Part shown: one piece after another, positions 1,032 through 26,447 of the stretch
How the letters are laid out: every line of letters begins with the position of its first letter
Numbering within the stretch: position 1 is the first letter of the stretch
NCBI GenBank assembly: GCA_008632985.1
Contig: QPGO01000179.1
Coordinates: forward strand, 1 to 64,000
Length of the DNA stretch: 64,000 nt
Source: Psammoneis japonica
Lineage: Eukaryota
Direction of reading: 5' to 3'
Made by a program: the position numbers and the translations under genes
The notes under the pieces: generated by a model
Told to the model about the DNA's origin: nothing
Seen by the model: the letters and a program-made list of their open reading frames with translations, nothing else
The model's database searches: none

Positions 1032-3194
1032 TCAGCACCATCCAGGTAGAGGGGAAACCGTGAATGGTTGGGATGAATGCCTTACGGCGCATGCGACGAG
1101 GTAAGACAGGAATCGGCGCACAGCAAATGTGTGGTGCCGTTTCCCAGAACATGGCAAACAGCCAGAAAACTCGGAGCTTAAAAAGTTCCAGAAAAGCTCA
1201 AGACGAGAGCTCGGCGTTGCCTCCTCGACGCTACAATCAACATCTTGGGGTTCGGGATCGTAAAATTCGAAACCGCGATGCTGGGTGCTTGGAGGTAAGT
1301 GCTCGTAGCTGTCTTCGAAAGGCAGGATGCTTGCCCCGGAAACGAGATCGTCTAACACGTCGTCGGACAGACCTTCCACGTGAGTTGCGATCGTGTCATA
1401 AAACACGTCCGGATTTTGAATCTCGTGCATGGCATAGGCCGGAAATAGCTCGATAGCTGACGGTAGGGAGTCAAAAGAGGAGTGAGCGTCGGAGCACTCG
1501 GAGTAATCGTCAGCGTCTTCAGGGTCAACCGTTTCGACCAAGATGGGAGCGGGTTTGGCCACGGTAGTCTCCCTCTCGGCCGATGGAGCAGGAGTGAACG
1601 AGACGGTCGTAGTCACTGGAGTCGAACTCAAAGAGTCGTCCACAGGTGCACACCACATGCCGCAATAAACCAGCTCGTTAGGGTCAGAGGGTTCGTCGGT
1701 AGGCGGAGACGTCGTCTGCTCGGGAGGACCAAAAGGAATGCCCGAAGAGGGGTCCGACACAGCAGATAAATTTGCCGCAGCGGTGGTTTCGGTGTTGACA
1801 GACGGTTTCCCGGTGTGTTGAGCGGAGGAGTGGCCTTGACACATGCCCTTCTTGCCCGTTTCCTTGTTCACACACTTGTCGCACCAGTGCCAGGTCGTGC
1901 CTTTCTCATCGGTGACAGTGGCACCTTTGTGAACGAAACACCAGGCCGGCTTGGGTGGTTTCTTGGAAGGGTTAGTCTTCCGGACATCCGGAGGGTCATC
2001 CTTGGACTTGTCCGCCGTGCCCTTTTTGTCCTTCTTGCATTGCTCCTTGCAGGTGGGACACGTGCGTTTGGTGCACCCAACCTTGCCACAGCCGCAGCAA
2101 TGCTTTTCCGAGTTGTCTTTGGCGAGGTTGGATTCCGGGAGCTTGGCTGCTAAGGCAGGCCAATCTTCATCGCTAATGAGTTCGCCATGGGTCTTGGTGA
2201 TCCAGCCAATGAGGCCAACAGGTCCAAGATCCGCACAGTCGGCATCCTTGGGGACTTCTGCCGGGTCACGCAAGCGATGTTTGCGCTCCAAGCGCTTGAC
2301 GGAGTCGAGCTTGGCAAAAACTTGACGATTGAAAAACTCGGAGGATGTCTTTGATGCCTTAGATAAAACAGCAGACCCAGTTTCAACTGGCAACGCATGG
2401 TCCGTCTGCATGATCTTGAGCAGGCGCAGAGCTTCGGTTGCAAGCTCGGTGCAGTCTTTGCCAGGGCAGTTGTCCAGAGTTAAGTTGTTCAACTTTTCCT
2501 TGGCGGCCTTGACGTCAACCAGAGCACTGGCGTTGCAGGTGTCCAGAGCCATCATAAATGAGACAGACCCCGGAAGATCCTTGTAGTTCTTCAAGTGATT
2601 AAACTTGGTTTCAATCTTTTCACGGAAGGTTTCGGTGATGCGCGACTTGACGATGAGTTGTGACAAGCCGATGTCATCGATTTCATGCTGATCGTAGCCT
2701 TCGTCACCTGCAGCCGCCACACGGGTCTCATGTTCCTTCTCAAGGTCTTTGACAGTGAAGGCGTGAAGATGATCAAAAAGGTGCACGACCTTGCCGTCGA
2801 CTTTCTTGAGATGGCAGAAAGTTTCTTGTCCGTGCGACTCGATTGAGTCCTGAATGGTCTTGACGAAGTGGTCTTTGTCCAGTTCAGCACTGGAACCGTT
2901 GGACAACTCAATCTGGCCGTTGAACTTGGATGTGGTTGCCGAAGCGAGTTGATCTCTGAGAGATCGCTCGATGGAGTCGACAGCTTTCGGATGGCGACGT
3001 TGCGAGGCAAAACGGCAGGTGCGGGTGTCGGTCTGCTCGCACTTGTTGTTCAGAGCCGAACCACCCAGATGCACTCCATGAGAGTGGTGGATACCGCCGC
3101 GAAGCGGCGTGGGGATCGTAGGAGGGTTGGTCGAGGTTTGCATCTTGGCGAAGGCCTCAGCAAACATCTTGACGGCATCAGGATCCATGGACAT
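1032..3194 (-). pseudogene. copia gag (start of gag-pol), frameshifted near the 3' end
   Basis: 720-aa ORF with CCGCGKVGCTKRTCPTC knuckle and WHWCDKC...H motif. Several Cys/His residues sit where Tyr is typical of this family. Confidence 0.8.
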
Positions 3195-3360
3195 GGTTGT
3201 GGATGATTCAATGTAGAGGATCGATTAGTGGGGAGGGATTGCGATGTAGATGATCGCCGTTGGATTGCGACATAGAAGATCGCCGTTGGATGGGATGTCG
3301 TCTGTAACGAGACGAACGAGTGGCAGCAACTCCGTTGCGAGTTGACACCGGTGCGTGGAT

Positions 3361-3374
3361 TGGGGTCGTAACCA
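3361..3374 (-). promoter_or_regulatory. putative primer-binding site of copia-1 (TGGTTACGACCCCA)
   Basis: TGG-initiated sequence 2 nt after a CA dinucleotide, about 170 nt upstream of the gag ATG. Cognate tRNA not identified. Confidence 0.4.
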
Positions 3375-4574
3375 CTTGGGATGCAACAATGCACTGTGTA
3401 GGATGGAGAGTTCAGGACTCTCTTGAGGTTGTACAATACAACAGAGGATGATAAGAAGCAGGTTTGGGACAATAAGATACGCTAAAGATACGAATTGTGA
3501 GAAGATCTCACGAGGGATTGGAGATGACATTATGACCTAACGGTCGTGTGTGTCACTCCGATTACTATCGCTAGAAGACTCAACGGACATTTCTTCCGGA
3601 AGAAGAGATCCATGACCGGGAGCGTCATCCGTGAATCAGACTCGGTTGTTGACTCGTGACTCGGCGCTCATTCTGAGAATATGGATGACTTCTGGGCTGT
3701 CATCTACTCTTGTTATGGAAGTTCGCTTAGCTCTTGGACTACAATAGTCGAGGCTATTCCGGATTCGTCCGTACCGTGTACACGCGGAGGAATTGCAGGC
3801 ACGAATGTGTACATTGGCAGGGCATGTCCGGGCAGTGATGTTTATTCCGCCGAGGAACTTGTGTGCACCCCCCACGGCGCTCTCTATCTTGAATCGGGTC
3901 CATCCTCTTGTTTCAACGGCGTCGGCTGTCTACAGGATTCGTGTGTTTTAAGCACTCCTCCTCTGGGTGGCGGTGTTAACGAAACATCTATTTCAGAGAA
4001 TTGCCTCTTTGAAGCGATGACTGGAACTGCCACTGTTCAGCGAATTCATCCTAAAAATTTTAAATTTAGTATGACGAACGCTTCTTTTATGGAAACCGAA
4101 CTGGATGAACAAATCATCGATGAAGCAAAGGAGGAACCAAGCAGATCTCCAGTGTCACAAACCCCAACCAGGTCCCCAAGAAACAGCTGAATGGGCATTG
4201 CGCAGAAGTCACCGCGTGAAATTCGGCTAAATTTTCTAGTGTAGTAGATCCGAAAATGGATTCCGGTACATTCGGTAGAATCGGTGAGGTACTCTAGAGA
4301 TTGAACTATTGTGAAACTGACAGCGCTAATAAGTTGGCAAAACCATAGGGCCTAAGTTGGTTCGAATTAAGGGCTCGTATAACAGCCGGAGATGCCGATT
4401 CAACAATGAGAAAATGTTGCTTAACAACTGTAAGACCCGTTGCTAGTGATAAAACTGTTTGCGATGTGTTATCTAGCTAGTGTAGTGTACTGGAAGTGTG
4501 GGTTAGCCGGCGTCGGCATAGCTGGCAAAGGAGTGATAGCACTTAGAAATTAGATTTGTTCTTTTATTTCAAAT

Positions 4575-7500: not shown

Positions 7501-7615
7501 GAGACAGCAGGACCAAGTCCATGGAAGGACACAGAGCACATCCAGACAGTTTAAGGGGAGTTCCCAATCGTCGAGACTGAACGGAAGCAAAGCATTGCTT
7601 GGTATTCTCCGTCAT
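4575..7615 (-). CDS. ANAPC4: Anaphase-promoting complex subunit 4; exons 7615-7116, 6994-5902, 5810-5732, 5633-4854, 4759-4575 (2637 nt, 878 aa)
   Basis: N-terminal CPSMDLV...LHRTVSWQRL...WSPNG WD40 segment, central APC4 helical domain, C-terminal SGSRGIG...LFDLEEDE. Four GT-AG introns join in frame to a TAG at 4577-4575. Normal Tyr and TpA content. Confidence 0.9.
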
Positions 7616-10600
7616 GGTCAACTCATATTCTGGCCGCTGCTTTTTTTTGCGCGCATCTATCGCGCATCCAACAAGATCGTCTGTCTGGCGAAATCCAGCC
7701 GAAGAGTGCAGAAAACCCAAAGTCAGATGAGCATCGCCGTGATGAAAATCAAAACTGGCAAAATGGCTCAATGAGAGCACAATTGAGCCAAATCAAAAAG
7801 GTCACAAATTCATCATCATCATGTGAGGCCAGTGCAAGCACGTGTGGTGCATGGCATTGCAGACTCTGCTGCTCTTCTTGACTGAGTGGAGACACACATC
7901 ACCGCCAGGGGACTGTCAGAAAACTCCTCATCTCCAGACCTGGGTCATCCACTTGGAGTTTGCACAAAGAGCAAGCAAAAGGAAGAAGTTCTCACAAAAG
8001 TGTTGCCACCTGCAGCCCTTTCAAACCCAACCCTCTTCTGGCCACACCATTTCCCTGAACTCATTTTTCTTTTCTCAACCACTGGGACTCTGCAAACCCA
8101 CTTGCTCTCTGTTTTTAATGTGCTGCTCCCCATCTTGCTCCTGTTCTTCTCCCCATTCTTTTTGCCTCTCTTGCTCACACTCTTTTTTCTCTTTTCTGGC
8201 ACACTTCCAACTTTCCACATTCACTCAAACTGACCCACAACACCTTCATTGATGTCTTGAGGTTCCAACAAAATTCCCCTGGTTGTTTGCCCATCATCAT
8301 CTGACCAATGACAAGCACTGTGAGCCAAAAGCTGAGCCTTGTCTGTGAGCCAAAAGGACAGTGCCTTGGAGCAACAGAAGCACCAGCATCTGCATCTGCT
8401 GCAATGAGAGGCTTGTTTGCTTGGGTGCATTTTGCCACCATCTGCTCCCCTGCAAGTGCTTCAACAAATGTTGCTGTGTGTGCTTGGAACACGAACCTCA
8501 ATGTTGGACAGAGTCTCTGGCACCAAAGAGTCCATGGCCAAGATGTGCAGCCATCTCTGGAGCGGTCTTGTTGTTGAGCAAGCCACTTTGTTCCAAGCAG
8601 GAGAGACCACTTTGGAACAACAACAGGAGCAGCAGCACACTCCATGGATGCTTGTCAATGCTCTTCTCCTGCTTTGTCTTCCATGAAGATGCAGCAATGC
8701 TGCTGCATTGAGAAGTGTCACAGCCACATCAAGGAGTCTCTTGTTTGTGCCAAAGAAACACCAAGGTTCATGCCATCTCTTTTGGTCAATGCTCTTGTTG
8801 AGCAAACCACTTGTGGCTTGTCCAGGGGGCACTTTAACACAACAGTGGGAGCAAGAGCAGTGCTGGTGCACACAATGAGGGGCCCCATGACTGCACTCAT
8901 TCTTTTCCTCTGCCTGTCCTTCTGCCAAACATTTGACCACACCACCACATTGACTTGTTGAACATGAGCACAAGCACCATTGCTGGGCAGAATGTCTTGT
9001 GCTAAAAGAGCCACAGCTGGTGACATGTCGTGAGCAGCGTTGTCTTTGAACAAGCTGCTTCCAAGCTGGGGAAACTTTCTTTCTAAAAGAAGAAAAGGAG
9101 TGACAGCAGCACTCTGGCATCTGTGGTGAGGGGCTCTTGTGCTTTGTGGCACACTCTTCTCCTGCACCCTCTCCACTCTTCTTCTGCCAAGATTCAATCA
9201 TGCTGCTGTGCTGATTTGGGAGATGGGGGTGCTGTCACTGGTCAGAGTCTCTTGCAGCAAGATCAACACAGCCAATGTTGTCTCTTGGGCAGGGTGTGCC
9301 CAGGTTGTTGTGGAAGCAGGTGTGCTTGCTCCTGCTGTTGCCTCTTGGACACAGCTCTCTCCTGTGAATGCAAAACTTCCTCTTGTTGCCAGAGCACTTG
9401 TTGACATCCAGGTGCAGAAGTCATTTGAAGACTGTGTGGCTGTCTGTCATTGCACAATGCCCGTGAGTGCCCATTGTTTCATCAAAGCACAGTGGCTTTT
9501 TTGAACCCAGCAGGCTGTGCATCAGCAACCAGTCAGAGTGAGCTCTGGCTGCTGGGTTTCCATTTGTGATGGTCTTGAAATGAACTGGCTTGGTTCAGGG
9601 TTCAGGCCCAGATCTCATCAACTGTGCTTCAATGTCTGCTGACTCATCAAGCCAGCATGCATTGCAATTGCATGGAGTGATGCCAGACCAAGCAACAAAT
9701 GACTGTCATTGGAGATGTTTCAGAGCATGCCCAATTGCAAAAAGCAAGCGCTGTGTCATGGGAAATCTTGCTGCTTTTGAGTTGAAAGCTTGCTGTGGTT
9801 GTTTTCAACAGCAGCACAAGAGTGCCCCACGATGCCTGCCATTGGAGCTGCACAGAGAGAGAGAGGTTGCACCCCCCAATTTTTGTTCAAACATCTTGGA
9901 TGCACCTGCATGGGCTCTGTCATGAAGCAAGAGTTGCAACTCTGCTTTGAGTGCAAGCACTTGCTCTGCAGTTTCTGGTTTGTGTCACAGAAACTTGCAG
10001 CTGCATCCAGGCAAAGGCACAGATTTGGATTTCTTGGAATCCATTGTGGAAGCAAATCTTGACATTGCACTCCAAGCCATCTCAAAACCTGTGACCAGGT
10101 TTCTCAATTTGAGACATCATGTGTCTTGTCTGCCAACCCATCTGCAAAACTGGCTGCCCCCCAGCCATGACAAGACCAGACTTGCATCCTGGAACACACT
10201 TCACTTGGACATCATTCTACAACAAATCCTCTTGCATTGGTGCTGTTGTGATTCTTCAGAATCATGTGTCAGACGGCCTGGAGTTCGCAAGTGATGAAGC
10301 CCACGCTCATGGCATCAGTTCTCAAATGTGCTGCAGGTGTTTGCCTGGCAGAAGATGCATTGAGAGATCTCATTCTCAGAGCCAGCAATCTGCCATTGTG
10401 ATGGAATGGCTGTGAGTCAGTGTCAAAACATGACAACCCAAAGAATGCGAAAAGCAAACTCTGTTGCTGCCACCCTCACAAGTCAGTGGCCGAGAATGTG
10501 CGACACAGGAAGGGTGCCTTTCAAAACCTCAACCAGCTGTTGGGGTGTGGCTTTGGACCCATCAAAGAAAGATGAGGCAGCTGGGTTGTTTGATTGGAGG

Positions 10601-13600
10601 GAAGAAGAAATGGAAGAGCTCAAAAAACTGAAGCTGCCTGGAAACTGAGACAGCTTGGTGGAAAAACAGTTCTGACATTTGTGCTGTTTGTTTGAGCTCA
10701 CTTGTGCTCTTTCTTTGGAGCCCAGGAGAAACATGTCAAGCAATCCAGCATGAGAGTGGCAGCTGCACTGTCATGGCAAGGATTGAAATGGGAGTGCATG
10801 CAGAAGAGAGCAAAGCAGAGATGCGGTCGACATGATGATGCAGGCACCGTGGAACAGAGGTGCTGCCAGAGTGAAGCTGCTCTGCCGGCAGCTCTGGCTG
10901 AAGAGCAGTGGCTGGAGCAGCAGCAGCAGCAGCAGTGGTGCAGTGGGTCATTTTCTTGTTTTCGTTTCGAGCATGTGGACCCACATCCATGAATGTTTGG
11001 CAAAAAAACTGTGGCCAATGTTTTCCTCCACACTTGTGCGGCACGACAATCCGCAGTGCTGCACAGTGTTGTCACGGGCAAGTTGTTCTGCACAGAATGC
11101 TGGCATCACCTTGCGTGGGATTTTTTAATCAGACTGATCAGAAAACACTGTCAATTGACAATTTTCCCCTTGCATGGACGATGTTTTGCTTTGGAATCTT
11201 GCACAAGCACTTGCCAGCATGTTGGAGGCACAAACACTCTTGCAACTGCCCAGTGAAGCCAGACACCGTCAGCAGAATGTGAGCCACAAACAACCACTGG
11301 ATGGCCAACCCTCCTGGGCACACTTGGATTCAAAGGGAAGTGACAGGCCATCCCACTCATGCTTCCGCTGTTTGTCACAAAGGTTCCATGGAGCAGAGGC
11401 ACAAGCAGGTTGCAGAATTTCTGCCTGCAGAGGAGTGCTTGCGGGTTGATCTCAAGAATGGCACCATTTGCCAGGACGAATTTTTGTTCGTCGCCAATCA
11501 GCACCTGCAGCGGGTTTGAAATGCAAAGAACAAGGCCTGCTTGGATCATTGCCGACCTTCGCTTCACAGGGCGGGGGATGCTGGACTGGGTGTTGCATTG
11601 AACAGTGCTTTCCATCTGGAGATTGGCGAAGAGGCAAAAATTTGCCAATGGTCACTGCTCCTGGCACCTTGTTGACTGGAGAGAAAAAATGCACAACAGC
11701 TGGCAATCACAATGCATTGCTCATCAGACTTAGAATTGCTGGTGTGGAAACTGATGACTTTTTGTCTCACAGCCACATTTGGAGTTGGGTCCAATTTTGA
11801 AGTGCAAGGGAGCTTCAGCTAAAGTGCAACTGCTTTTGCATCTTTGTCCTCCACCGGCAGTCAGCTCTCCACAGATCAAGAGCAGGCACCATTGGCTTTT
11901 GTTCGGATGGCAACCCAAATTTGCAGTCCACCACATCATTGCAAGCGCACAGGCAAACAGCGCAGAAATGGTCCAGCAGTGCATTTCGATGACAGGCTTG
12001 GGACTTGGAGTGGAAAATGCCCCCCACCGGCTTGGAGGCCAGGAAAGAAAGCAAAGGACCACCCTGAAACACAGATGCAAGGGAGCATTGTGCACGAAAA
12101 CAGAAACCACGACAGCGATTCCACAAGTGCTGCGACCGTCATTGCAGTCCATGGGCGCACACACGGAATGACCAAAGCGCAATTGCAGATTGCCACACTG
12201 TCCTTTTGGTCTTTCTGCTGCCACTGCAAAGGCTCAAATTGTGCATCAAAAAAATTGAAACACACCAATGTCAAAAGCGGCAATTGAAGTCGGTTGCGCA
12301 GGGTGATGTTGCCTCAAGAGCTCCATCAAAAGATGGCGCTCAAGCTTTTGCGCATCTTCAGAGTGAAATGTCGCTCAAAAAAAGTGAAAGGGGGGATGCA
12401 CTGCGGAGACAACAAGAAAACTTCAAAGTCAACCGCATTCTAAATCAACACTCCCTGCAAGTGAAGACCTGCCGCATCATGTCACTGATGCGACGGAACC
12501 CCAAACCCGCGTTCTGTCAATGGCATGATCTGCTTTGCGAGCTTTTGCTGCTTCACAGACAAGCACTGCTGTCTGTTTCAACAGCCGTGACCTGACGGGT
12601 CAAGCAAACAGGCAACTTCCTGCACTCAAAGACACAAGAGTGACATGGTCTCAAGGCCGGAGAGACGCGCTTGATTTGCCCCAACCTCTGGACTTGGCTG
12701 GCAACACCTGCGCCACCCAGAGACAAAACGTCAGCAAGCAAAATGATTCGTGGAGCACCAAACCGGAGCTGGCATTCTGTTCCAGAGGAAGGCAAGCCAT
12801 CATTGGCAATGGCTGCAATCCTTGCTTGGTGAACAACAAACACATCATGCAAGATGACAAGTTGTGATTGATCGAAAGCAAGAGCTCAAAAGAACAAAGC
12901 TTTCCGAGAGATTTTGCGTGTCACACAACTGTTGCTGAATTTCTCAATCACTGTCCTTTTTGTGCATGTTTGTAAAATTGATGCCATGAATTTGCATGTA
13001 GAAGATTCGCAGGAACGCAGTGCTTTCATTGACATTGCCAATTCCTGCGCACACTTTGCGGCAACCATCGAAAATGCAAAAAAACTGCCAGACGTTTCGC
13101 TTGAGGCCTGAGCTCCCAAATTCTCCAGACTCCAAGCAGCACCGCACTTCACTCACCATGTGACTTGAGACTGCCGCCTGCCGCCACTCCCAGCTGGGAG
13201 GTCTGCAAGTGGTGCGGAAGGCCTGCCGCCTGCTGCCCAACATGGCAATGTCATTCAGTGAGGGCGCAAAACGCACGGGTGTCACACCCGGGCAGGCATG
13301 ACGCACGGATTCAAAAACAGGTGTTAAACTCCAATTCATTCATGGGGTGTGACACTTGGGGGTCACACCCGCATTGTTTGCACGGGTGTGAAGCACCGGG
13401 TGTGATGCCTGGTTTTCATCAGTGTAGAATTCAGCAGGACAAGTGCCAAAGAGCCAACAATCAACATCAAATCACTCAACAGTCAACCAGCACTGCGTTT
13501 GCATCCAAGTCGATGCCACAGTGTGATTCTTGCAGCATCTGTCAAGGCCAACACAAGTCCAATTGCCTCAACACATCACAAGTCAAACATTCATGCCCAC

Positions 13601-13899
13601 TGTTGACATGCCACGGTTGCTTGCAAGTCATTCTGGCGGTGCAGGTGCCGTGCACTTCAAATGCCGACGACCGCTGACACAATTTGATGGAGTCAGCACG
13701 ATGCATCAGGTGTGCAACAATGCATTCATTCCATGTGCAGCACTTCTGTGCTTTCTGACAATGCTCTTTTTTCTCTTTTGCATGCTTCAGGTGCTGAACA
13801 GTTCAAAACAATTTGAAAAGTCTTTTCAAAGAATGCACGTGACGACGGCTGCGCTGCTCTTCACTCTTCACGATGCTTGCCTGTCTTGTGCTCAACAAG

Positions 13900-14980
13900 T
13901 TCCGGCACAAGGCATGTGTGGCTGTTTGTTTTGTTCTCCCTCTTCCCTTCATTTCTGTTGTTCTGAGAGCTGCCAGTTCTTTTTTTGCCTGGTTCAGGTG
14001 CTGCTCCATTCACCATGCTAAATGCAACAATCAAAAATGCTGGTTGTCGGGATGAACGTGACGACCGCAACACCACTTTGCGATGCTCAAGGTGTGTGCG
14101 GCTGTTGCTTTAGTTCTCTCTTCTCCCTTTCTTTCTGTTGCTCGCATGACTTGTCATTTCTCCTCTTGCATGGTTCAGGTGCTGTGCAATTCATCATGTT
14201 GGAATGCAACAATGAAAAATGCTGGTGGCCCCACTTTGCGATGCTCAAGGTGCGCGCGGCTGTCACTTTAATTCCATCTGTGCCCTTCATTTCTGTGGCT
14301 TCCAAGACTTGCCATTTCTCCTCTTGCATGGTTCAGGTGTTGTGCAATTCATCATGTTGGAATGCAACAATGAAAAATGCTGTGGCTGTGATGGGCATGA
14401 CGACGTCAACACCATGCTCAAGGCACAAGCTGGCACAATTTTGATTCTCTCCATCCCTTTGTTTCTGCAGTGTTGCAGACTTGCTGCTCCACCTCTTGGG
14501 AGTGACTGCTTCTCCTCTTGCGTGGTTGACATGCAACAATCGAAAATGCTGGTGGTTGGGACAGGTGCGACGATGGCGACGTCGTGATGCTCAAGGCATG
14601 AGCGGACATTGTTTTGATTCTCAGACTCACTGCTCCACCTCGTGAGAGTCAATGCTTCTCCTCTTGCATGGTTGACATGCAACAATCAAAACCACTGGTG
14701 GTTGGGATGGGCATGATGACGGCGACCCCACTTCGTGATGCTCAAGGCACGAGAGCGCACATTGTTCGGATTCTCTCCACTCCCTTTGTTTCTGTGATGC
14801 TGTTCACTTGCTGCTTCACCTCTTGAGAGTCAACAGGACCTCACCTCTGCTCTTTCACAGTTCATTGCTGGTGGTCGGGATTTGGGATCAACGTGACAAC
14901 CGCCACACCTGCTTGCGACGCTCAGGGCATGTGCGGCTGTTGCTTTGATTCTCTCTGGTTCCTTTGTTTCTGTGTTTCTG
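13900..14980. repeat. degenerate tandem array of ~6 units of ~130-190 bp
   Basis: Recurrent TTCTCCTCTTGCATGGTT...ATGCAACAAT(G/C)AAAAATGCTGGT...GATGCTCAAGG. Confidence 0.8.
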
Positions 14981-17189
14981 TCATTTTGTTGCCACACACA
15001 GTTGTTTCATGGACTGCCATTGTCAAGCTGACGAATGTGGCATCTGTTCATCCGTTTCCAACTTTGTGTGGGCTCCCTCCAGAGTTCAGAGTTTTGCTTC
15101 TGCTTGTTTGCAAAAAGCACTTGATTTGTCCCACATGTGAGACCAAAGAGCAGTTCATCATGGTTGTAAAGAAAGTTGTTGTTGCCATGCCTCCCAGTGC
15201 AATGAGAGCCCACACCACACAGAGGCTTGGTGGTGGTGTGGGTGCTGCCGGCAGGGTGGAGCAGTGATGCGATTTTTTGCCATTGGCCACGACGACTGTG
15301 TTGTTGTCACCATCTCAATCTGCCAGGACCTGTTCCAACCTGTCTCTCTAAATGTTCATGCTGGCATCATCATGATCATGAACACCATCGTGTTCTGCAT
15401 CACTGTCGCCGCCGTGTCCCTCTTCCTCGGCCTCCACCATGTCCACCTGTGCAAAACACACTTCTGGCGGGTCGTCACCACCCACACCAACCACATCAGA
15501 GTGCACGACATCGTAATGTCTGCACACATGATAAAAACATGTTGCTGTGTTATAAAATCTGCTTGTCTGCACATGATGGTTTTTGTCATTTAGTTGATTG
15601 TCAATCTCCTGCTGTTCTTCATGTTTGAACACAGATGCTTTTTAATTTTTGTGCTCAGCCTTTTTCACAACTGCTGATGATCTTTAACGACAAGCCAAAC
15701 ATTGCAATTGCATGCAATGAAATTTTCATCATGCAAAGTGTGCGCCAATCATTTGGTCAATGACTGTGCTCCAATTGGCCTGTTCGTCCGCATCGTCCTC
15801 TTCATTCCACATGTCTTGTCCGCTCTCTTGCAAGAATTTCAAATGTGCGTGCCGCTGCTGCATTGGATGTTTCCTTGTCACCATTCCAAAAAAGCCACAC
15901 TGCATTTCTTGCATTTGGGTGAACATCATTGAGAGGAAGAGGTCCCTCGAAACGCAGAATCGTGTCGCTGCTCCCCTCTTGACGTCGTGTCGTCTGCTTC
16001 TTTTTCTCTTTCTTCATTTTTCCCGTCCCATTTTTCTCTTCCTTCTTCGTCTTGGCGCCACCTGTTTTCACCGTCTCCGGTGTCTTTCCAACCGAATCCT
16101 TCTTTTTCATCAATCCCGTCGCCGTCGCCTTCATCGTGTGTGACTTTGTTCTGGATCCATGTTTCTGACTTCTCTCTGTGCTGTCCCCATTTCCAAATGT
16201 TTCTTTGTGATTGTTCGCATGCGTCACTTGAAGGCACCCACGTGTTCTTTACGCACCTTAACGCGCATGCAGAGATCCATGTTGTTTTCCAGCACATGCA
16301 CCCTTTCTCCTGATGCTGTTCCACACAACATTTTCTTCCATCAATTCTGCACTCCGCATTGCCCTTTCCCGGTGTTGTCTCACGTGGGATTTCTCTGGGA
16401 GAAGTTGCGTGCGCGTCTGGCAGGTTTTTGTGTGTGAAACTCCAAATCCCACCAGGCACGCATGTGACTTCTCCCACGCACCACTCTGGCATGTTTCCAC
16501 AGAAACCAGAATTTGGTGACTGATGCACGACCAATCTGGTGAATGCAATGGCGGACCCACGACCACAACAATCAGAGCATTGGAAGAAAACCATGTCAGA
16601 TGAACTCTGTCCATCCGCTGCTCAGAATTTCCATCGCCGGATGATGGAGACAGTTGATGGTTTTGTTCATGCTGACGCTGCTCATTGTTTGGAGGACCAG
16701 AGAGCAAAGGATGCAAAGGCTGCTGTGTCAAGATCGGCAGAAGCAATGGCAGAAGCCCGTTGTGCTGCTGTGGCTGCAACAACTGCACTTGACAGTGCTT
16801 TGTTAAATCCAGCAACAACCGCTCACAAATTTGCGCACATCTGTGCGCAGTTGATTGAGTCATCAATCGAGACACACTGTTCAGACAACGACCACATTGT
16901 TGCAGTGGAAAATTGCAGCGAAGCGAAAATGAGTTTCCAGCACTTTCTTTGCGGCAACGCATTTGACGCAAAAGAATTGGGGCTCCCAATCTCCATTGCG
17001 GGACATCAAAAATCAGAGTTGAGGCTGCACATGCTGCACAGCTGTGACTCGACGTTGCTTCTGAGAAGCCTCAGGGCAAATTCTGACACAGATGCCAACA
17101 GAGCAGTGGAGAGGGAGCAATCTGCGATTGACAGCATCAACAAATCCATCCACCGCCGTGCCGTGCCACTCCTTTGAAGGCAACATGGT

Positions 17190-17953
17190 TTTGAAATTTT
17201 TGGTTTCTAGAGTGACAGGAATAGACTCGCTGGGTGGAAGAGGGAAATGCTTGGTTGAGGTGCACATCAACTCTTTTCTCCTTGGCAGAACTGCACCAAG
17301 CTCAATGTTGCTGTCACCAGTGTGCCTCTCAATGAAGTCAACAATGTGGTCGCACAATTCCAGGGGAGCACCGCGTGTGTCCATGAGCTTCTTGCACAAC
17401 TCTGCGCAAGCTCTGTCAAGATTTGTCAAAGAGGGAGTAGAAGCCAAGGCCTCTTCTGCAGGAGCGTCACACCTGCTCCCCAAATGTTGATCCTCATCGT
17501 CAATGTCCTCTTCCTCCTCCATTGTCACGTCCAACACTGCAGCAAAGGATTGACCACCGCCAACATCCAACTCGTTCATTGCCAAAAAAGTTCAGCTCCT
17601 TGCATGCTGTGGTTTGATGAAATGGAGGACATGTTGTCCACTCCGTGCGGCGCGTCATCCGGGGAGGGGAACAAGGGGCTGCTGCTCGGATCACTCGTTG
17701 AAGATCTTGGGAATCTGCTACGAGTTGATCGCCTGGGACAGGATTCGTCATCATCAGAGGACAAAGAGGAAGAACTGCCGCTTTCTTTGGGTGGCCCCTC
17801 TGTTGTGGCAGGAATGTCGCTTTGATCTGGGACCAGATCTTGGGTTTGCAACTCTTGGGCAACTGAGCAACACGTCGGTGAGCACCTCCAATGGCAGGCC
17901 ATTTGCAAAAAACTTTGGCCACAACCGGGACAGAGAAGAGGGGTTCCGTCCAT
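17190..17953 (-). pseudogene. N-terminal relic of a Plavaka-like transposase (Zn-finger, acidic tract, helical segment)
   Basis: CPGCGQSF...HW...C followed by LMDTRGAPLELCDHIVDFI...LPRRKEL...P..IPVTLE, resembling the APLxLYD N-terminus of Plavaka-type ORFs as I recall them. Catalytic core not seen. Confidence 0.5.
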
Positions 17954-18405
17954 TGCAAATCAGACAATGTTGACAGGGCCTTCATCAAGACTCATGCTCG
18001 TCATCCTTGTCTTGTGGATGAGAAGGGAAAAAAAGAACAACACGCAAAAAATGGCGGGAAATTGGCAAACATTGCATTGTCTTCCAGATTGGGATGATTC
18101 TCACAGGCATGATGCATCTGCATTTTGATTTTTTATCTGGCATCCACAACGAACATTGTGCTTTTTATTTGCTGTCAAAATGCAGGATGCCATCTCCATT
18201 GAAGCGCAATGACAGCCACATCAAAAAGCAAGTTGGGCCACTCATTGTCATGTGTGAACACATTTTCAAATTTCAACGTTGCTGACAACAATTTGTGCAA
18301 TGTCACAGAGAAAAATAGAGTGCCTGGCTGTCTCAACACGACCCAAATGATGGTTGCACTGTCGAACAGCACCGCTCCTCTCATTGTTGCCGTGAAAAGA
18401 TCAAG

Positions 18406-19620
18406 ATGTCGTCTTCAGCACAACCGGCAAAGAAGAGAAAGAAAAATGAGACTGTCAAGCCAATGAGCCCAAGACTTCAGGCAGTGTTGAAGAGACCAGG
18501 CACGCAGGCAGCGCATGGTGCATTGAAATCAGAAGCAGAGAAGGTGGCTGGAAATGATCTCTTTCCACAGGTGAAGTTTCTCAGTCCATCTGAATTGGCA
18601 AGCAATGGGAGCGTCTCAATGTTTGTCAAGAAACAGATTGCTGGTGGCAACATGGACACTTCAAATTGGTCAGGAACTTGGGAGGAATGGGCAAAAAAGG
18701 TGGCAAAAAGGCAAATTGACAATCGCAGAAACACGGTGTGTTCGGCTGTTGGGGCGGAGGCAATGGCACATGAGTCAAGTGGCCAATGTGTGTGATTCGA
18801 GAGTTGCGTGTGTCTCACAAGAAGATGATGGTGATGCTTTGTCCACTGGGCGTTGTCATCAAGGAAGAGGGAAAGGAAAAAGAAAAGAAACTCAAGGCGG
18901 CAGACAGGAGGAAAAAGAGGAAAAAGTCAAGCCATGACAAGAATGAAGAGAATGACATCCCGTTTGTGCCAACATGGGATCCGTTTGGCCTGGACGCTGT
19001 CACCGGCGGCAAACGAAGGAACAAGCAGGCACGCAAGTGGTTCTGTGATCACATCCTGCCTCAAACCAAGCAAAAGCAGGCGCGGAGCAGCGCCGTCAAA
19101 ACTGGGAACGCACAGGTCTCACAGTTGTTTGCGGTCGATGACGAAGCTTTGGCGCTGTCTGCTGTGGAGAATTGTTGGCAGGTGTGGGCACACAGGAACA
19201 AGGAGGAGGCGGTGGAAGAATTGGGTGAGGAAATGGAGCCCAAAGAAACAAGGCCTGCCCCTCGGTGCACGAAGCCAAAGAAACAACGACTGTCTTGGGG
19301 AGACGACGGAATCAATCGGTTCAACGATTTGTGCGAAGAGGTGACGAAAGACAGAGACTCCAAGGAGGGCAAGGAGTTTGAAAAGTGGCACGCAGAGATC
19401 AAGAAAAGCGAGCACGAGAAGTCCGGAGAAGCAAAAAAGAAGAAAAAGAAAGCACCGATGGGTGGTGCGGATGAGGTGAAGGCAATGAACAGCCTGATGG
19501 TGGAGAGCAGCAGGGACGACAATGGCAACGACGATGAGCAGGAGGAAGGCGCAAAAGGCAAAACGGACGATGGAGGAGACGAGTCCGATGGAGACGAGTC
19601 TGATGATGACCGTCAGCTTG
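18406..19620 (+). pseudogene. transposon accessory ORF relic (LFPxxKF...W...RN; DEAxALxxxENxW; RxT...SWxxxGIxRFN)
   Basis: ORFs 18406-18795 and 18786-19841. The motif order is conserved in the paralog at 31420-32590. Confidence 0.6.
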
Positions 19621-22229
19621 GTTTGAGAGAGTTGTGCAGCAAGAAAATGTGTGCACAGTTTGCATGGCACTCGGTCATTGCACTGCAGATGCAACAAGGG
19701 ATTGACTTAACCGATGAAATGCTTTTCTCGTTTAAGATGATGTTTACGAAAATTGACAAACCAAGGATTGTGTGGAAATGCAGTCGCGCACTGGCACATG
19801 GCAACAAGGTGGAGGCAGACACAGTGATGTGGACACAGTGAAAAACAGCGTGCACAATTCTTAACAAGTTGTTGCAACATTGGTGTGGCAAACTTGTGAC
19901 CAGAGGTTGGCCTTTCATTATATGACAACAATGTTTTGCAACATTTTGACAAATTGTCATCATGCAAATCCACACATTTTTGACATTTCGTGCACTCTGA
20001 TGCACCGTGCAGCCTGGAGGACTCAAGGATGAGCCTCCCACTTCTATCTCATCTGCCACACCTAGTTGCCATCGACACTGTAAAGTCGATGGTACGACGA
20101 GAAACAAACGTTTGTTGCTCTTGTCGAGCATTCTGTGGTTCTTTCGGCAACAAGCTCACGTGTTGATGTTGATTTGTCGTGAGTTGCGGTACAGCTTTTA
20201 CGGGCGCGAAGCGCGCATAAAAACCCGGGAAAATGCCCCCGAGTACCCCAGGCGTCACGCCCCTTCGCGTACAGTATTGATAACGGCAACGAACCAACTG
20301 TTCGGACCGTTGCAACTATTGATTCATCGATCAACGCTCCTGATAAAGGCGAAAAAGTGTTTACACGTCTTAGTGTTCCAATAAATTTTATTGCAGCTCA
20401 ACGGCCTTCGCCAAAGTGAAAAACGCGCGTCACACCCGGGTTTTTCGCGCGCCCTCACTGAACGATAGCCTTATAACATGCAACACAAAGTGAACAGCAG
20501 ATCGAAGATAAAGAACGGAATATCTGCAGAGAAGAAGGAATCGAGATTCTCTACAATAAGAGTCAACCGAGAATGGAGATTGAAGATGTGTATTTTATAT
20601 TGTCGAGTCGTCGTCGTCAGAGCATCCGGAGCTGACGCAATCGCAATCGGCTCGCATTCGAGACCACGAACGCATAGAGAAACTGGACGGGACTCTATTC
20701 CGATGGCGCATTCTTGGGAGGCAGGCAATATGTGAGCTTCGTACGGATCGCAAACCTCGAAACTTTTGGTACAGTTGGTCTGTTCAAGTGCTTGGCTTGT
20801 TCACGTACATGGTGACCGTCTCAGTGCCCTGGAGAATGGCCAACTTTTGGCACGCTGTTGGTTGCGGTTTACGGAAGAACACTCCAGGCCTCGATCTCTA
20901 TGCCCTACCCACCAAAGACATTTGGAACGTAAGTGTCTTCGAACTGACTTTCATTTCATCGTTTCTGCTCGTTTCGCAGACGACCATGACACCCGTCATG
21001 CCGGTAGGCCGGCAACAGGCAACAGGCGGTGCTAGATTTTGTCGCCGACACTTTTCCTACCAAATTTTCCAATAAAGTATGCTTTGTGTATTGTCCTGAT
21101 AAGTTTACACATGAAAAGAGAGGTGAGATGAACTCCAGAAATGAACAAAAACTGCCTTGTATGATTTTGCTGCACTTCACGCTTGTTGCTTGTTGCTCAC
21201 CGCTAGCGTTGCAATTTCTATTCTTTCTCGACAGATTCAATAGTGTAGAACCAACCCATTGCGTGGGGGTACATAATTATGTGGACAGCAAAGTTTCTTT
21301 CGTCTTAAGTGGTGTCACTCGATTTGGTTGAGGACATACAAGAGAGCCTTTCTACATTCTGCCCGTTACACAGAACACAGAGCGTCATGCTTTTTCGTCT
21401 TTCACGATGCCGTGAGTAGCACTCCCTCGTTAGGGGATCGAAAACTGGCAAAAGAGTGTGAAGAACATGAAAGGAAACGCAGTGGTATTAAGGTGGTCTG
21501 TCTGGCAGGTATGCTTGCGGTAGGAGCAACAGTGTCGTTTTGCTGGCGGTGCTCAGTTGTCATTTGCAGAGCTTCTCTGCCCACAAAAGGACTTGCAGTG
21601 GGCCCATCACCATATCCGGATGCTTATGATGTACGGGTGAGTCTCGTATTGCCTGAAGAGAGCATGGTTTGCGTCTACGGGTTGTTTCTGACTCGGTTCC
21701 CTATTGCTCCTCCTGTTTTATCGACACAGGCTTCAGCCTGCACTGTTCAGGGACATCGCTTGTACATGAAGGACAACTATTTGCTACGTGATGGGCAGTT
21801 TCTCCTCTAGCCTAGTCACCATATTTATTGTCCAAAGCCTTTTTGTCAGTGTCTTTGACTCTGACAACAAGGATGGTTACGGGCGCAGTAGGGCCTGTTA
21901 CATGCAATTGTATCTTCACCGTTGAACTCATTGTGGTGCTGTAATGGACGGTGATACAGTGACGGCGTCTCCTGAATACATTCGTCCTCCAGAAAAAGTC
22001 GTTGAGCGCCGCCTTCAAGCAAAGGAAGTGGACGAAGAGTAAGAGGAAGATGAAACGCACGAAAAGAGGCTGGACAGTGAGAAGAAGATATTCATAAACG
22101 AGAAGACAAATAGCGTGCCGTCGTTTTGGAAATGCTGGGGGACTTGCCATCTGCCGGTGAGTATGCACTTGCAAGCGTTCTACCACATTGCTGCTTGTTC
22201 TCTTATATGCACTGTGTTTCGTTTTACAG

Positions 22230-23938
22230 ATATCAAAGCTCCTGAGAAAATTGTGCTTGTTTGCAAATATTGAATCCAGCGACGAACTACCGGAACAGGC
22301 TGATTCGGGCCGTTCATGGATGCGCTGTGTGATTATTCAATTTTGCCGAGTCGGTTGTTACTGCCCTCATGGACCTTTTGGCCGCGGATAGTGCTATGCA
22401 GGTTGCTCTTTTTGTCAGAGCCATTGTGGAACAGTACCCCGCACTTTCGTCGAGGATATTTCTTCCAGCATGTCTCTGGATCTTGGGTGAATACTCGGAT
22501 ACGGAGGAAACCGATGTGGAGGCCTTTGAAACTACTTCCGATCAGTTAGGTCCGACCCCATTCTTGATCGCCAAGGAAGAGAATCATGAAAAAAGCACGA
22601 AGAAGGAGAGGCTCCCAAAACGATTTCTAAGAACGTTGTGTCGGCCGACGTTACTTATGCGACCCAAACCTCTACTCTGAAGCCTTTTTCCGGACGAGTC
22701 GGATAATACTCCTCATTTGCGCAAGATGGTGAGTGGCGACTTCTTTCTCGGGAAACATTATAGCGTCCTGCCTGACCAAGTTGTGTTTAAGGGCGACAGA
22801 TCAGCCTCAAATGGTTGCATTGGCGATTAAGAAAATGACGTCCGATACGCTGCTTATCATGTGCGGCGTAGTCGAAATGGCCGAGGCCAGCGTTTCTGGT
22901 AAGCGTCCCGCCGTAGCTGATTGTTTGGAACGCATTACACTATGCTGCCGTGCGCTTTTGGGCTCAAAGGCTTGTATTTTACTCAAGGATACTCCCCGGA
23001 ATTATCACAAAGAAAGTAACGTTTGCCCAGTTTCTCAAGACGCTCAGGGACGAAGAAACCACAGATGCTTCGGCCGACGACGAGGACTACGCAAGCAAGC
23101 TGGCCACGGGGCAGCTTGACGACTTGATCCACTTTCGTCAGCTGCGTTCCATGGCTGTTCAGGGTGGTGATGTCGACCTTGACGACTGAGACGATTCGGA
23201 ACGTGCCACTGGGTATGCCGATGCCAACGATTTGCTTAGTTCCGAACTCAATCATTTCTGCCAACTCAGTGGTTTAGCGGATAATGCTTGTGCGGAGGCC
23301 TTTGTCATGGTCCATGATTATGACATTGTCTTCGAGATTCTGGTCATCAATTGTACTCCCAACACACTAGCCAACTTGACGGTGGGGCTCGCAACGATGG
23401 GTGACATGAAGACTGTCGAACGCCCGCAGTCTCAAAATATTGGCCCTCTTGATCAGATAACGTTTCGCGCCTCCATCAAGGTGTCCTCCACCGAGCCGGG
23501 GCACATCTTTGGAACCATTGTCTACGAAGACACGGCGACACGAGAGAAGGGATGCATCAATCTCAATGATGTTCATTATGGATTACATCCGCCCCGCAAC
23601 TTGTACCGACAAAGCCTTTCGATCCACGAGAGCGTGCCCGCGTGTGGGATCAGTCCTTACGCGTACCTTTAGGCACTGGTAGTGTATCATGTCTATTTGC
23701 TGATACGACTCGAGTTTCGCAGTCTTTGAACCACCAACTAACACACTCGTGCTTTTTTTGTTCTTGTAGTGTCTTTGGCGAAGACGCCCTCTTACATGTT
23801 TCGGTCGAGAAGAAGGACGACAATGACGGCAAGTTGGCTGGGTACATACGGATTCGCTTCAAGACACAAGGGATTGCTCTTAGTTTGGGAGATCGCATCA
23901 CCAGCGTTCAGAGATCCATGCCTGAAGCCAAGCAGTAA
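22230..23938 (+). pseudogene. COPB1: coatomer beta subunit, C-terminal half; frameshifts, stops and internal deletions
   Basis: LWILGEY, TYATQT, GDFFLG...LTKL, IHFRQL, VHDYDIV, IKVSSTE.GHIFG.IVY, MDYIRPATC, SVFGEDAL, GYIRIR.KTQGIALSLGD spread over several frames. N-terminal half absent. Confidence 0.9.
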
Positions 23939-24911
23939 AACAAACGATCGGGATAGAGAACACCGAGTGTATTCTAAACTAAAAAATACCACTTCTTTAG
24001 CATTAACACTGCACGAACTAGCCCCACTGGTGTGTATTGATCCTACTCTCTATAGAGAGGCTTCTCTCCCTCGGTTTGATTTCCCGGGCTACTACTAGGG
24101 TCGATCGCTTCCTTGACGCCAATAGGGAACGGGCCTTACAAGGAAAAGAACCGTGAGGCTGGGCATTAGGCTGTGTGGCTCAAGCCGCCTCTACTACTAG
24201 CAAGATGTAGGGACCCATTTTTGAACAAGAAGATTGAAAAGCTACATGAATACGAATATCAAAGTTCTATACATTTATTCTAGACGCCACGGAATGTTAT
24301 CCTTCGTTTACTACCATTGAGAGGAGCCGCTATCCTTCTTGGCGCATAAACAAAGTTATTCCGTGACGCCAATACTTACCTAACTATCCGTTCTTCTACA
24401 ATTCATTCTCCACGTCCGAAATAAGTAAGGGTTTGGTTCATTGACTACCGCGGGTCTTGAACAAATACTGAGTCGTCGTTTCGCATTGAAGCACCAATCA
24501 TGCCTGGTACACATTTTGTTCCGGAAAACATAAGTTGCGGGGCGGGACCCACGGTTACTTGAACCTTAGTATTTCAACAAAGACTGTCTGTCGTATCGTT
24601 TCTAGTCGGGTGGTCGAACCGGGTAAAGGGTGTATTTCTATGTTGTGAAATGAAAACAAAAAGCAAGGTTAGAAAACAAGTCTCAATGGAAAATGGAGAG
24701 GAGGCACGAACTTTACTTACATTGGGGGTGCATTCGAATGTAACGTGATATAACGAGTGCACCCCATGGTTTTATGAATTGCACGACAAACTCGTACAAT
24801 GTTGGCGAGTCTTTGATGCGCATAAAAGTTGTATTGTACCGTGAAATGGAATCAAGAGATGCCCCCATGCATGCTCGATTTCCAAGGATACAAAAGAAGC
24901 AGATAATGAGT

Positions 24912-26447
24912 CTAGCGGCGACTCATGATCCTTGCGGATCTACGCACGACACGCCCAGTATTAGACGAAAGAAAGACACTGCCAGCGGCTTGACGGAGCC
25001 TAGGCGAGCGTCTCAATTGGCCAGTGTGGGCTTGCTTTTCCTTGTTTCTCACAAGTACAGCATCAGGAACAGCATCCTCCTCTGCCACTGGATTGTTGTC
25101 GGCAGCCATATCGTGAAGGTCGAAAGTATCGTCAGGCTCTTCGGCTACAGCTCCAAGAACAACTTCCTCGTCGTGTACAGCAATCACGGGATCGTCCGTA
25201 GCGTCAGCAACAGCAGGTTCCCCAACGTCAGCAACGGGAACGCCCACCTCCGCATTGACTGGAGCATCGTCAATAGCCACAGCAGGATGGTCCACGGCTT
25301 CAAAAACAGGTTCCTTTACTACAGCAACAGGAACGCCCACCTCCGCATCGTCTGGTGCGTCGTCAACAGTCGCAGCAGGCTCGTTCAAGGCTTCCCAAGG
25401 CTCTTCAACAACATCAGGAACTGCTTCCTCCACAGCATTTAGATTGTTGTCCGTATCCTCAGCCGGTTCCATATCCAAAATATCCGAGGCATCGTCAGCA
25501 ATGGGGTTGTTGTCCGTAGCATCAGCGGGTCCAATGGCAGCTAGAGTCCGCACCCAGCCACGCCAGTGATCACACGAAAGATCAGAGTCCCAGCAATGAA
25601 TACTTTCTTCTTGACCCGCATCAAATTCAAGCATCACCACAGCCAACTGCTCATCATTCAATACGGGTATCACACGGGTGTAACGTGCACGTCGAAGAAC
25701 GCGTTTGGCAGGCACACGGGTTGGGACTGGAGGAATGTCACCAACGAGAAAGTCTTGAATCACATCTCGGTCGGGTTTCCACCTGACATGCCTTTCTACT
25801 GGATCAGCAAGAGCCTCGGCCGGTTCCATGGCCGCTGGAGTCCGCACCCAGCCACGCCAGTGATCATACCTTGGATCCGTACGATACTCACGAATGTATC
25901 GGTCTTGCTTCCAGTCAAACTCAAGCAGTGCAGCAGCCAATTGCTGATCATTCAGGACGGGAATGACACGGGTGTATCGAGGGATCCGAAGACATCGTGG
26001 AGCGGCCACGCCGGTAGGGACTGGAGGAGCGTCACCAACGTAACGGTTCTTCAGCAACATTCGGTCCGGTTTCCATCTGATGCGCCCACGACCAACTAGT
26101 TTGCGCTTCAACAGCAGCAACCATGGGAACAGAAATCGCAAGGGAACGTAGATGAAGTAGGAGAACCAATACATGGTCCATACAATCAATGCAACCGCGA
26201 GAGTAACCGCAACAGCATCGCACGCTCGATCCCAAAGAAGAGTGGTAAGGTCGTCGATTTCCATAATCCGGTAGTACAAGAAATAGACCTTATCACCAAT
26301 CAACTTCAACGAGGAGTGTATGAATATCCCAGCATACAAGGCAAGGAGAACTTGCCAGATCGCAACGACAAAGGACACGACAGCGTGAATCACGCTTTTT
26401 AAGTTTTGACGGGATGTTGCGGCACGTTTGCGTTCGGTTAGTCGCAT
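24912..26447 (-). CDS. hypothetical 511-aa protein: hydrophobic N-terminus, 2x ~98-aa repeat, acidic Ala/Asp/Pro/Val repeats, basic LRRSPRL...RRSARI tail
   Basis: Uninterrupted ORF with normal TpA content and a 294-bp-period internal duplication (25545 vs 25839). Confidence 0.6.
   Translation of the reverse strand: MRLTERKRAATSRQNLKSVIHAVVSFVVAIWQVLLALYAGIFIHSSLKLIGDKVYFLYYRIMEIDDLTTLLWDRACDAVAVTLAVALIVWTMYWFSYFIYVPLRFLFPWLLLLKRKLVGRGRIRWKPDRMLLKNRYVGDAPPVPTGVAAPRCLRIPRYTRVIPVLNDQQLAAALLEFDWKQDRYIREYRTDPRYDHWRGWVRTPAAMEPAEALADPVERHVRWKPDRDVIQDFLVGDIPPVPTRVPAKRVLRRARYTRVIPVLNDEQLAVVMLEFDAGQEESIHCWDSDLSCDHWRGWVRTLAAIGPADATDNNPIADDASDILDMEPAEDTDNNLNAVEEAVPDVVEEPWEALNEPAATVDDAPDDAEVGVPVAVVKEPVFEAVDHPAVAIDDAPVNAEVGVPVADVGEPAVADATDDPVIAVHDEEVVLGAVAEEPDDTFDLHDMAADNNPVAEEDAVPDAVLVRNKEKQAHTGQLRRSPRLRQAAGSVFLSSNTGRVVRRSARIMSRR

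Follow-up and report, generated by a model that had tools for sequence, protein, structure and literature searches.

In a 64,000-nt stretch of the Psammoneis japonica genome (contig QPGO01000179.1; hereafter the window, which was analysed as a whole), dense mutation of TA dinucleotides ends inside a DNA transposon of a small family at 13249-20467. The left arm of this outer element is heavily mutated and its right arm is spared. Between the arms lies a second, high-copy transposon of PlavakaB type (15494-20002), on whose right end the mutation edge is centred. The pattern suggests that chromosomal neighbourhood, not sequence alone, decides which DNA becomes a target, and family alone is insufficient to decide the mutation state of a copy. 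Three blocks of the window are depleted in TA with raised TG and CA (~7660-20000, ~26540-48200 and ~55600 to the window end), and CG is lost to varying depth in the same blocks. TA is near zero over ~7660-19700 and resumes its normal level at ~20040. Copies were sought in the corresponding 91.4-Mb eukaryotic assembly of 597 contigs; C numbers below (C2, C28, C36, C38, C47, C160, C196, C210, C289) name contigs of this assembly and L numbers name loci. The parts of the nested elements are as follows (TIR, terminal inverted repeat; ORF, open reading frame).

13249..15491, heavily mutated left arm of the outer element; 150-180-bp repeats inside
13249..13250, + strand, TG at the outer left end (the right end has TA at 20466-20467; other copies have TA, CA, TG or AA)
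13251..13267, + strand, left TIR of the outer element
15492..15493, + strand, target duplication CA, left copy
15494..20002, inner high-copy PlavakaB-type DNA transposon, internally deleted
15494..15508, + strand, left TIR of the inner element, CATCAGAGTGCACGA
17164..17186, deletion junction; ~2.9 kb gone, including most of the transposase ORF
17164..17900, - strand, 5' remnant of a transposase-like ORF; right limit approximate
18774..19841, + strand, the inner element's second long ORF (355 aa; without a Pfam match)
19700..20130, TA-mutation transition zone, straddling the right end of the inner element
19988..20002, - strand, right TIR of the inner element
20003..20004, + strand, target duplication CA, right copy
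20005..20467, spared right arm of the outer element
20449..20467, - strand, right TIR of the outer element with terminal TA

The 19-mers at 13249-13267 and (reversed) 20449-20467 are the window's sole matches at no more than two mismatches. A pattern made from their 17-letter core has eight matches in the genome at no more than one mismatch (a control pattern has one), and seven of the eight are ends of the outer family. The inverted match therefore marks true element ends, as the earlier note had proposed, and coincidence fails as an explanation. The right end is matched at five further places, four of which reach the terminus or come within a few bases of it; matching left ends are found on C196, C2 and C160, and homology with the other copies stops at the termini. 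The same note had taken 13249-20467 for a single transposon. This part is ruled out, since 15494-20002 is a separate insertion with its own TIRs and target duplication, and the two arms are directly joined in five of the six other copies.

These six copies, which retain the right end or most of the body (two on C160 and one each on C196, C2, C28 and C38), and fragments on C210 and C289 make up a small family. An autonomous copy was not found, and the ORFs in or near the outer copies yielded no Pfam family. Tc1/mariner, ESTA and PHISTA elements duplicate TA, and the outermost dinucleotide of the outer element is TA, TG or CA at eight of nine intact aligned ends and AA at one. Neither a target duplication longer than a dinucleotide nor an empty site was seen among the aligned ends. 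The outermost dinucleotide is thus probably a TA target duplication and not part of the TIR, and the TG at 13249-13250 is probably a mutated TA target duplication (or terminal dinucleotide).

The evidence for a split outer element is the bulk contrast between its arms and not the two bases by which its TIRs differ. Aligned to a little-mutated copy on C160 (C160a), the left arm has 74 of 80 TA sites changed (41 to TG, 33 to CA), with an even spread across five bins; of its 83 CG sites, 32 have become TG or CA. In the right arm 9 of 12 TA sites are kept and one has become TG, and none of 24 CG sites has become TG or CA. In a direct test of the arms, TA was lost at 74/79 sites on the left vs 1/10 on the right (p=3e-8), and CG at 32/80 vs 0/22 (p=1e-4). 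Beyond 20130 all 14 TA sites are kept, and the right TIR lies in TA-normal DNA, as had been stated. The two TIR differences, which had been read as a record of this boundary, fit both mutation types but are not diagnostic, since both recur elsewhere: the C196 copy, which is largely TA-normal, begins on its left with the terminal TG too, and the right ends of the C196 and C2 copies have the CG/CA variant.

The outer family occurs in both states. C160a, the second C160 copy (C160b) and the C196 copy are largely TA-normal; the C2 and C38 copies are TA-poor. An intrinsic protection of the right arm is ruled out, as the C2 copy has this arm mutated throughout and the C28 copy for the most part.

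The inner element dominates a search with 13249-20467: its two segments match many places at 86-93% identity (best 40 of 285 candidates scored). Its copies (best 40 of 146 first-look candidates scored) match 15494-17186 and 17164-20002 with ~2.9 kb between those parts; full-length copies are ~7.4 kb long, start with CATCAGAG and end with CTCTGATG. Read by eye, the window ORF 17013-17591 repeats the N-terminal portion of an ORF in copy L060 that is 1113 aa long. Termini of the form CATCA..TGATG are found in the window copy and in 18 of the 21 copies for which the two ends were placed. A 2-bp target duplication, CA in the window, flanks 15 of the 18 copies with intact termini, a count that excludes three further copies for damaged ends. 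The accessible part of PMC12730594 places PlavakaB in the CMCT clade and defines it by 5'-CATCA..TGATG-3' termini and a 2- or 3-bp target duplication. The inner element resembles it in its termini and its 2-bp duplication, and may share Plavaka-like transposase features: the long ORF of one copy has feature matches of 0.94-0.95 to PF18759 clusters, with 10/10 best matches in agreement. A Pfam scan and a PDB search with the inner-element ORF gave nothing at threshold, and in the inner copies changes of Tyr to Cys or His confound the C(2)C motif and the H(3-4)H motif that PlavakaB has between the catalytic D and E. The PlavakaB elements described in that part of the paper are from fungi; the window copy is internally deleted, mutated and without a Pfam match at threshold.

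All 29 compared inner copies are heavily mutated. Inner copies retain ~10% of TA and 60-68% of CG, and Tyr is missing from all 1113 residues of the transposase ORF in one of them. Another element with CATCAGAG..CTCTGATG ends and a CA duplication, 13.9 kb long, interrupts the C160a copy of the outer element 7 bp from the window's insertion site (L047:6790 to L049:698; C160, ~96790-110700). It is largely TA-normal with long ORFs, and one of these has a weak similarity (23% over 381 aa) to the inner transposase. Two insertions 7 bp apart possibly reflect a target preference, or chance.

At the edge itself, the proportion of TA kept at sites of ancestral state rises from 0/22 (19000-19700) to 6/27 (19700-20002) and 4/7 (20005-20130), and is 14/14 beyond. 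Within 19700-20002 the sequence is 6/21 followed by 0/6 just before the junction. The returning TAs stand at 19708, 19733, 19745, 19862, 19919 and 19921, then at 20045, 20063, 20081 and 20093. A gradual return of TA over 19700-20090 had been described earlier; the range agrees, the fade is modestly supported, and the centre of the change, which had been missed, is the junction of inner and outer element. An 800-bp ramp centred at 20000 beats a step by 2.8 log-likelihood units here; at four other fitted edges of the window a step is as good as a ramp or better, within 0.2 units.

One account of such an edge is that the boundary is just the end of the inner element. Mutation would then be bound to elements, the fade would come from resistant sequence contexts and low TA density in the outer arm, and the left arm would have been hit in a separate, earlier episode. 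The best single step, at 20040, is only ~40 bp from the junction, and one inner copy beside TA-normal DNA has a sharp edge at its end, with 1 of 27 terminal TAs kept. Survival also depends strongly on context: TTAA survives at 0.39 and CTAG at 0.24, and GTAC, ATAC and ATAT at <0.01. Against this account, four of the six TAs kept in 19700-19925 survive in at most 3 of 39-40 other copies. It also gives no reason why one arm should have had its own episode, and leaves unexplained the flank effect and orientation-linked gradient in the long terminal repeats (LTRs) described below. We consider it very unlikely.

The best evidence for position dependence comes from a young LTR retrotransposon of 7.2-7.3 kb at the left of the window, of which two parts matter here.

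3374..3661, - strand, LTR upstream of the long ORF; 13/16 TA sites kept
1032..3224, - strand, 730-aa ORF inside the element, called gag before; no Pfam match; partly mutated

The earlier note had an LTR spared at 3380-3870 and a gag that is hit. The sparing stands, the coordinates do not (3662 onward is flank, also present at an empty site on C36), and the ORF is indeed partly mutated, the gag label being without a Pfam match. An LTR pair and a 5-bp target duplication in 15 full-length copies mark an LTR element, not specifically the Copia superfamily; the traits that would identify Copia, integrase ahead of reverse transcriptase and an RVT_2 domain, belong to pol, which falls outside the window. 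The LTR ends, ACTTG..GACT on the + strand, depart from the canonical TG..CA, and the 5-bp target duplications are clean. Its youth is seen in copies 91-97% alike, in ~95% of CG sites kept and in its absence from the matching C36 site. Half to three quarters of the TA sites in the interiors are nevertheless lost, even where both flanks are TA-normal, so that TA and CG loss run on two clocks. The two LTRs of the 15 full-length copies differ at 147 positions, ~133 of them at TA sites (hand count).

Whether an LTR is spared (at least 10 TA kept) follows its flank: 21/27 LTRs with a TA-normal flank are spared vs 0/11 with a TA-poor flank (p=1e-5; 38 LTRs with distinct flanks, two duplicate-flank rows and one copy with a 9-base flank excluded). 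For 5' LTRs the counts are 14/15 vs 0/7. In copy L134 one LTR keeps 16/16 TA and its partner 1/16, in line with their flanks. Five sites at 3531-3572 are mutated in 5/75 cases where they face outward (5' LTR) vs 21/60 where they face inward (3' LTR), and the gradient is thus tied to orientation, not sequence. An intrinsic protection of the LTR is ruled out, as the same LTR is spared or mutated in different copies. Between two pairs of LTR copies with the same flank, the TA kept differs (L111/L112, 13 vs 16; L150/L106, 13 vs 9); mutation therefore continued after those copies separated.

The direction and the independence of the mutations were read from the inner copies. TpA changes to TpG or CpA on both strands, with a TG share per copy of 0.40-0.58, and 87% of the differences among copies are transitions. 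In 139 balanced TG/CA columns of 30 aligned copies, agreement between copies is 0.543 vs 0.564 expected at random, and 8834 of 9591 column pairs fail the four-gamete test. Each copy was mutated independently and in place. One pair agrees fully and is probably one insertion assembled twice. Inheritance of the TA loss from a depleted master copy is ruled out as the main cause by the unlinked TG/CA states and by the differences within LTR pairs; some sites of loss may be inherited.

As to chemistry, A before a pyrimidine is changed more often (0.49-0.68 vs 0.32-0.50), a preference that resembles the UAC preference of TadA-type enzymes. Deamination of adenine is favoured, on this likeness and on a published proposal for a similar signature in Bigelowiella natans (see below). 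The genome has nine matches to PF00383, the cytidine/deoxycytidylate-deaminase family, none of them tied to the process. The same map could also arise by other means that spare A from deamination, namely a modified T misread as C, a methylated A or error-prone repair. In sequence, A-to-G on one strand and T-to-C on its partner look the same, and, in the accessible part of PMC12730594, some fungal Plavaka elements carry TET/JBP genes, so that thymine-modifying enzymes accompany this class of element. Given the pyrimidine preference, we regard these alternatives as unlikely.

To the right of the outer element, 21542-26400 is a multi-copy repeat whose copies are 94-96% identical, and it is TA-normal in the window. 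It had been a candidate for a gene island; this was rejected, as the region is multi-copy and its Pfam matches are coatomer-beta fragments and weak matches below threshold. Besides these fragments it has a 526-aa ORF with internal repeats, for which the protein feature atlas gave no usable match. It is possibly a gene-capturing element or an expressed family. Among 15 of about 40 listed copies examined, 12 keep at least 65% of TA, two are half mutated and one keeps 3/72; the repeat thus mostly escapes mutation, sometimes amid TA-poor flanks.

This repeat bears on a further explanation, a homology-sensing process like repeat-induced point mutation (RIP) of ascomycetes. RIP makes dense C-to-T transitions that create TpA from CpA, is tied to the sexual cycle and to the RID methyltransferase, and shows edge effects. 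Copies would be recognised by pairing, and mutation would fade near the ends of paired tracts and leak beyond them; spared LTRs would be tract ends, and the left arm would have been leaked into from both sides. The most abundant families are indeed the most uniformly mutated, the young LTR elements are mutated inside and spared near their ends, and 'leakage' is in published use for RIP that reaches adjacent single-copy DNA. The multi-copy repeat nonetheless escapes in the window, as do the copies closest to it. Over 2.2 kb the left arm is uniformly mutated, with its closest relative C160a TA-normal, and the right arm touches the same seed, yet is spared. Neighbouring TG/CA choices in the inner copies form no strand-coordinated runs (1443/2748 alike, 1417 expected), and the main target in B. 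natans is single copy, according to the part of that paper available (bioRxiv 10.64898/2026.01.13.699255). Pairing as the guide is, in our view, distinctly unlikely.

The reading that we consider probable is one of silenced zones. A host process would act on silenced DNA once it has inserted and convert TpA there to TpG or CpA, an A-to-G change that can fall on either strand. A silent zone would be seeded by abundant elements, the inner PlavakaB-type element and the LTR element among them; it would fill across low-copy DNA between seeds and halt, or withdraw by ~150-450 bp, on meeting unmutated DNA. The outer element itself would be a weak target: its left arm would have been trapped between the inserted inner element and another mutated block, and its right arm, facing unmutated DNA, would have escaped. 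CpG would be lost on the same map but more slowly, as expected from decay of methylated CpG in the same zones. What the data show is the nesting, the direction of the changes and their context, that each copy mutated on its own and that position matters; a heterochromatic nature of the zones, adenine deamination as the chemistry and this order of events are inferred.

As to spread beyond the seeds, in 43 of 46 flanks of other inner copies the first 500 bp, or all of the compared sequence where it is shorter, lack TA-normal DNA. One inner copy has a mutated flank of ~1 kb that yields no scored match except an 80-bp repeat (best 40 of 69 candidates). A comparison of flank repetitiveness against the compared loci matched 15/46 flanks and has little power.

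The earlier note had suggested that mutation is targeted by chromatin domain with fading edges rather than by sequence family. Position does matter, because the outer element is split, the LTR state follows the flank and the copies of three families span a wide range of states. 'Rather than by sequence family' is too strong, because the edge is centred on the high-copy inner element, all of whose compared copies are mutated. Chromatin is an inferred component. The interiors of young LTR elements are mutated and their flanks are not; elements therefore seem to seed the zone, and the neighbourhood to set its edge.

Several observations weigh against the silenced-zone reading. The right neighbour, where a source of protection for the right arm was sought, is not a clear gene by Pfam or by the atlas. 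Each of the three lost sites of the right arm depends on one comparator, and the C28 copy has a mostly mutated right arm though it lies beside TA-normal DNA. In the last 300 bp of the window's inner element, rare TAs survive to a greater extent than in any other copy tested (p=0.001), an excess that was found post hoc and is partly due to two adjacent sites, with the last six sites before the junction all mutated. Among the three inner copies whose right flank is TA-normal, sparing is not significant (12/81 vs 89/880, p=0.19), and sparing at the edge was not shown to be a general rule of this family. Copies were selected by likeness to the window copy, which biases the comparisons toward the state of that copy. 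For 3' LTRs the flank effect is weak (7/12 vs 0/4, p=0.09), four or five of them are mutated right up to a TA-normal flank, and a paired test of the LTRs within elements was null (rho 0.18, p=0.53, n=15).

A broader proposal is more tentative, and we would not yet expect it to hold in full. A heterochromatin-steered DNA adenine deaminase might act as a genome defence, in zones that silenced elements seed, that extend across bystander DNA and that draw back 1-2 nucleosomes from open chromatin; TpA loss would then be a permanent fossil map of silent chromatin at nucleosome scale, legible in the sequence by itself, and the enzyme a natural A-to-G editor guided by chromatin.

The rest of the mutated block and its surroundings offer further observations.

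7660..13248, left part of the mutated block; decayed low-copy DNA to ~11900, high-copy repeat at ~12100-13100

The left edge of the block (~7660) adjoins the 5' part of an APC4 gene (Pfam, ~5900-7800). CG loss is strongest in low-copy DNA by this gene edge, at 8000-10500 (observed/expected 0.03-0.18), and this depth suggests that the silent DNA there is the oldest of the block. The contig end of C36 matches 3662-8308 at 94-99%, lacks the LTR element and is probably the other haplotype; it has the same mutation edge near 7660-7790, and the APC4 gene region is unchanged between the two. A duplicate of 7516-9902 (APC4 5' part and upstream DNA) at C47:457840-460419, with 68-72% identity, has lost essentially all TA and is a host-gene fragment mutated in a silent setting. 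Directly left of the outer element, a 37-bp motif (13184-13220) has at least 15 near-identical matches elsewhere and is probably the end of another element. In the large block ~26540-48200, a small island at 33000-34000 retains TA in part; it belongs to a repeat with an inverted copy at ~62300-63000 and offers one more pair of states before and after mutation. In the same block, 44504-45427 gives a weak RVT_2 match (E 0.002, below the cut-off).

The locus itself is one more example of its kind, and its value is in the design of tests. How the TpA mutator chooses its targets is a question left by the sole paper describing it. Elements that are split, or that carry two identical LTRs, allow sequence and position to be told apart and so serve as natural controls; they pinpoint places where chromatin marks should change. 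If the silenced-zone reading is true, RIP would have a second counterpart, opposite in chemistry and steered by the state of the chromatin. The ages of transposable elements (TEs) in such genomes would be badly overestimated from divergence, as 73% of the differences among inner copies are in TG/CA columns, and the enzyme would merit attention as an adenine editor of DNA that occurs in nature.

Among known systems, RIP is alike in its dense transitions in inserted transposon copies, its mutated and clean compartments and its leakage into flanks. Its direction is opposite, as RIP makes TpA and here TpA is destroyed. Here no stops are created and tyrosine is removed (the 1113-aa ORF above), close repeats can be spared and strand-coordinated runs are lacking. 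With respect to duplication as a trigger, abundant families are mutated, but repeats of 94-96% identity are spared and low-copy DNA is mutated. In diatoms, TEs carry CG methylation with H3K27me3/H3K9me, and in Phaeodactylum tricornutum their CG methylation depends on DNMT5, as far as the passages seen of PMC9998398 go. Such a TE-focused mark would, by decay, give the CG to TG/CA loss on the same map; those passages are silent on TpA loss.

The TpA signature itself is already published. Mettrop et al. (bioRxiv 10.64898/2026.01.13.699255) describe, in the part of the paper available, TpA hypermutation of integrated DNA of nucleocytoplasmic large DNA viruses (NCLDV) as well as virophages in B. 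natans; the DNA chiefly targeted there is silent and present as a single copy, and an A-deaminase is proposed, with an ADAT2-like candidate. The words 'diatom' and 'boundar' are absent from the main text, and edges inside elements and a flank effect are not treated. Our literature search, with most subscription papers outside its reach, found no report of the signature in diatoms or TEs, or of edges inside elements. In B. natans two viral regions were seen mutating, with about half of TpA left, and ongoing mutation was measured in mutation-accumulation lines; here DNA transposons and LTR elements are affected, with ~90% loss, and the process is read from sequence. Both systems change TpA to TpG/CpA on both strands and by region, and B. 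natans also has TpA-poor clusters with TE-related domains. A confinement of the B. natans type is found here as well, with mutation in blocks in the window, the APC4 region unchanged between haplotypes and some repeats spared.

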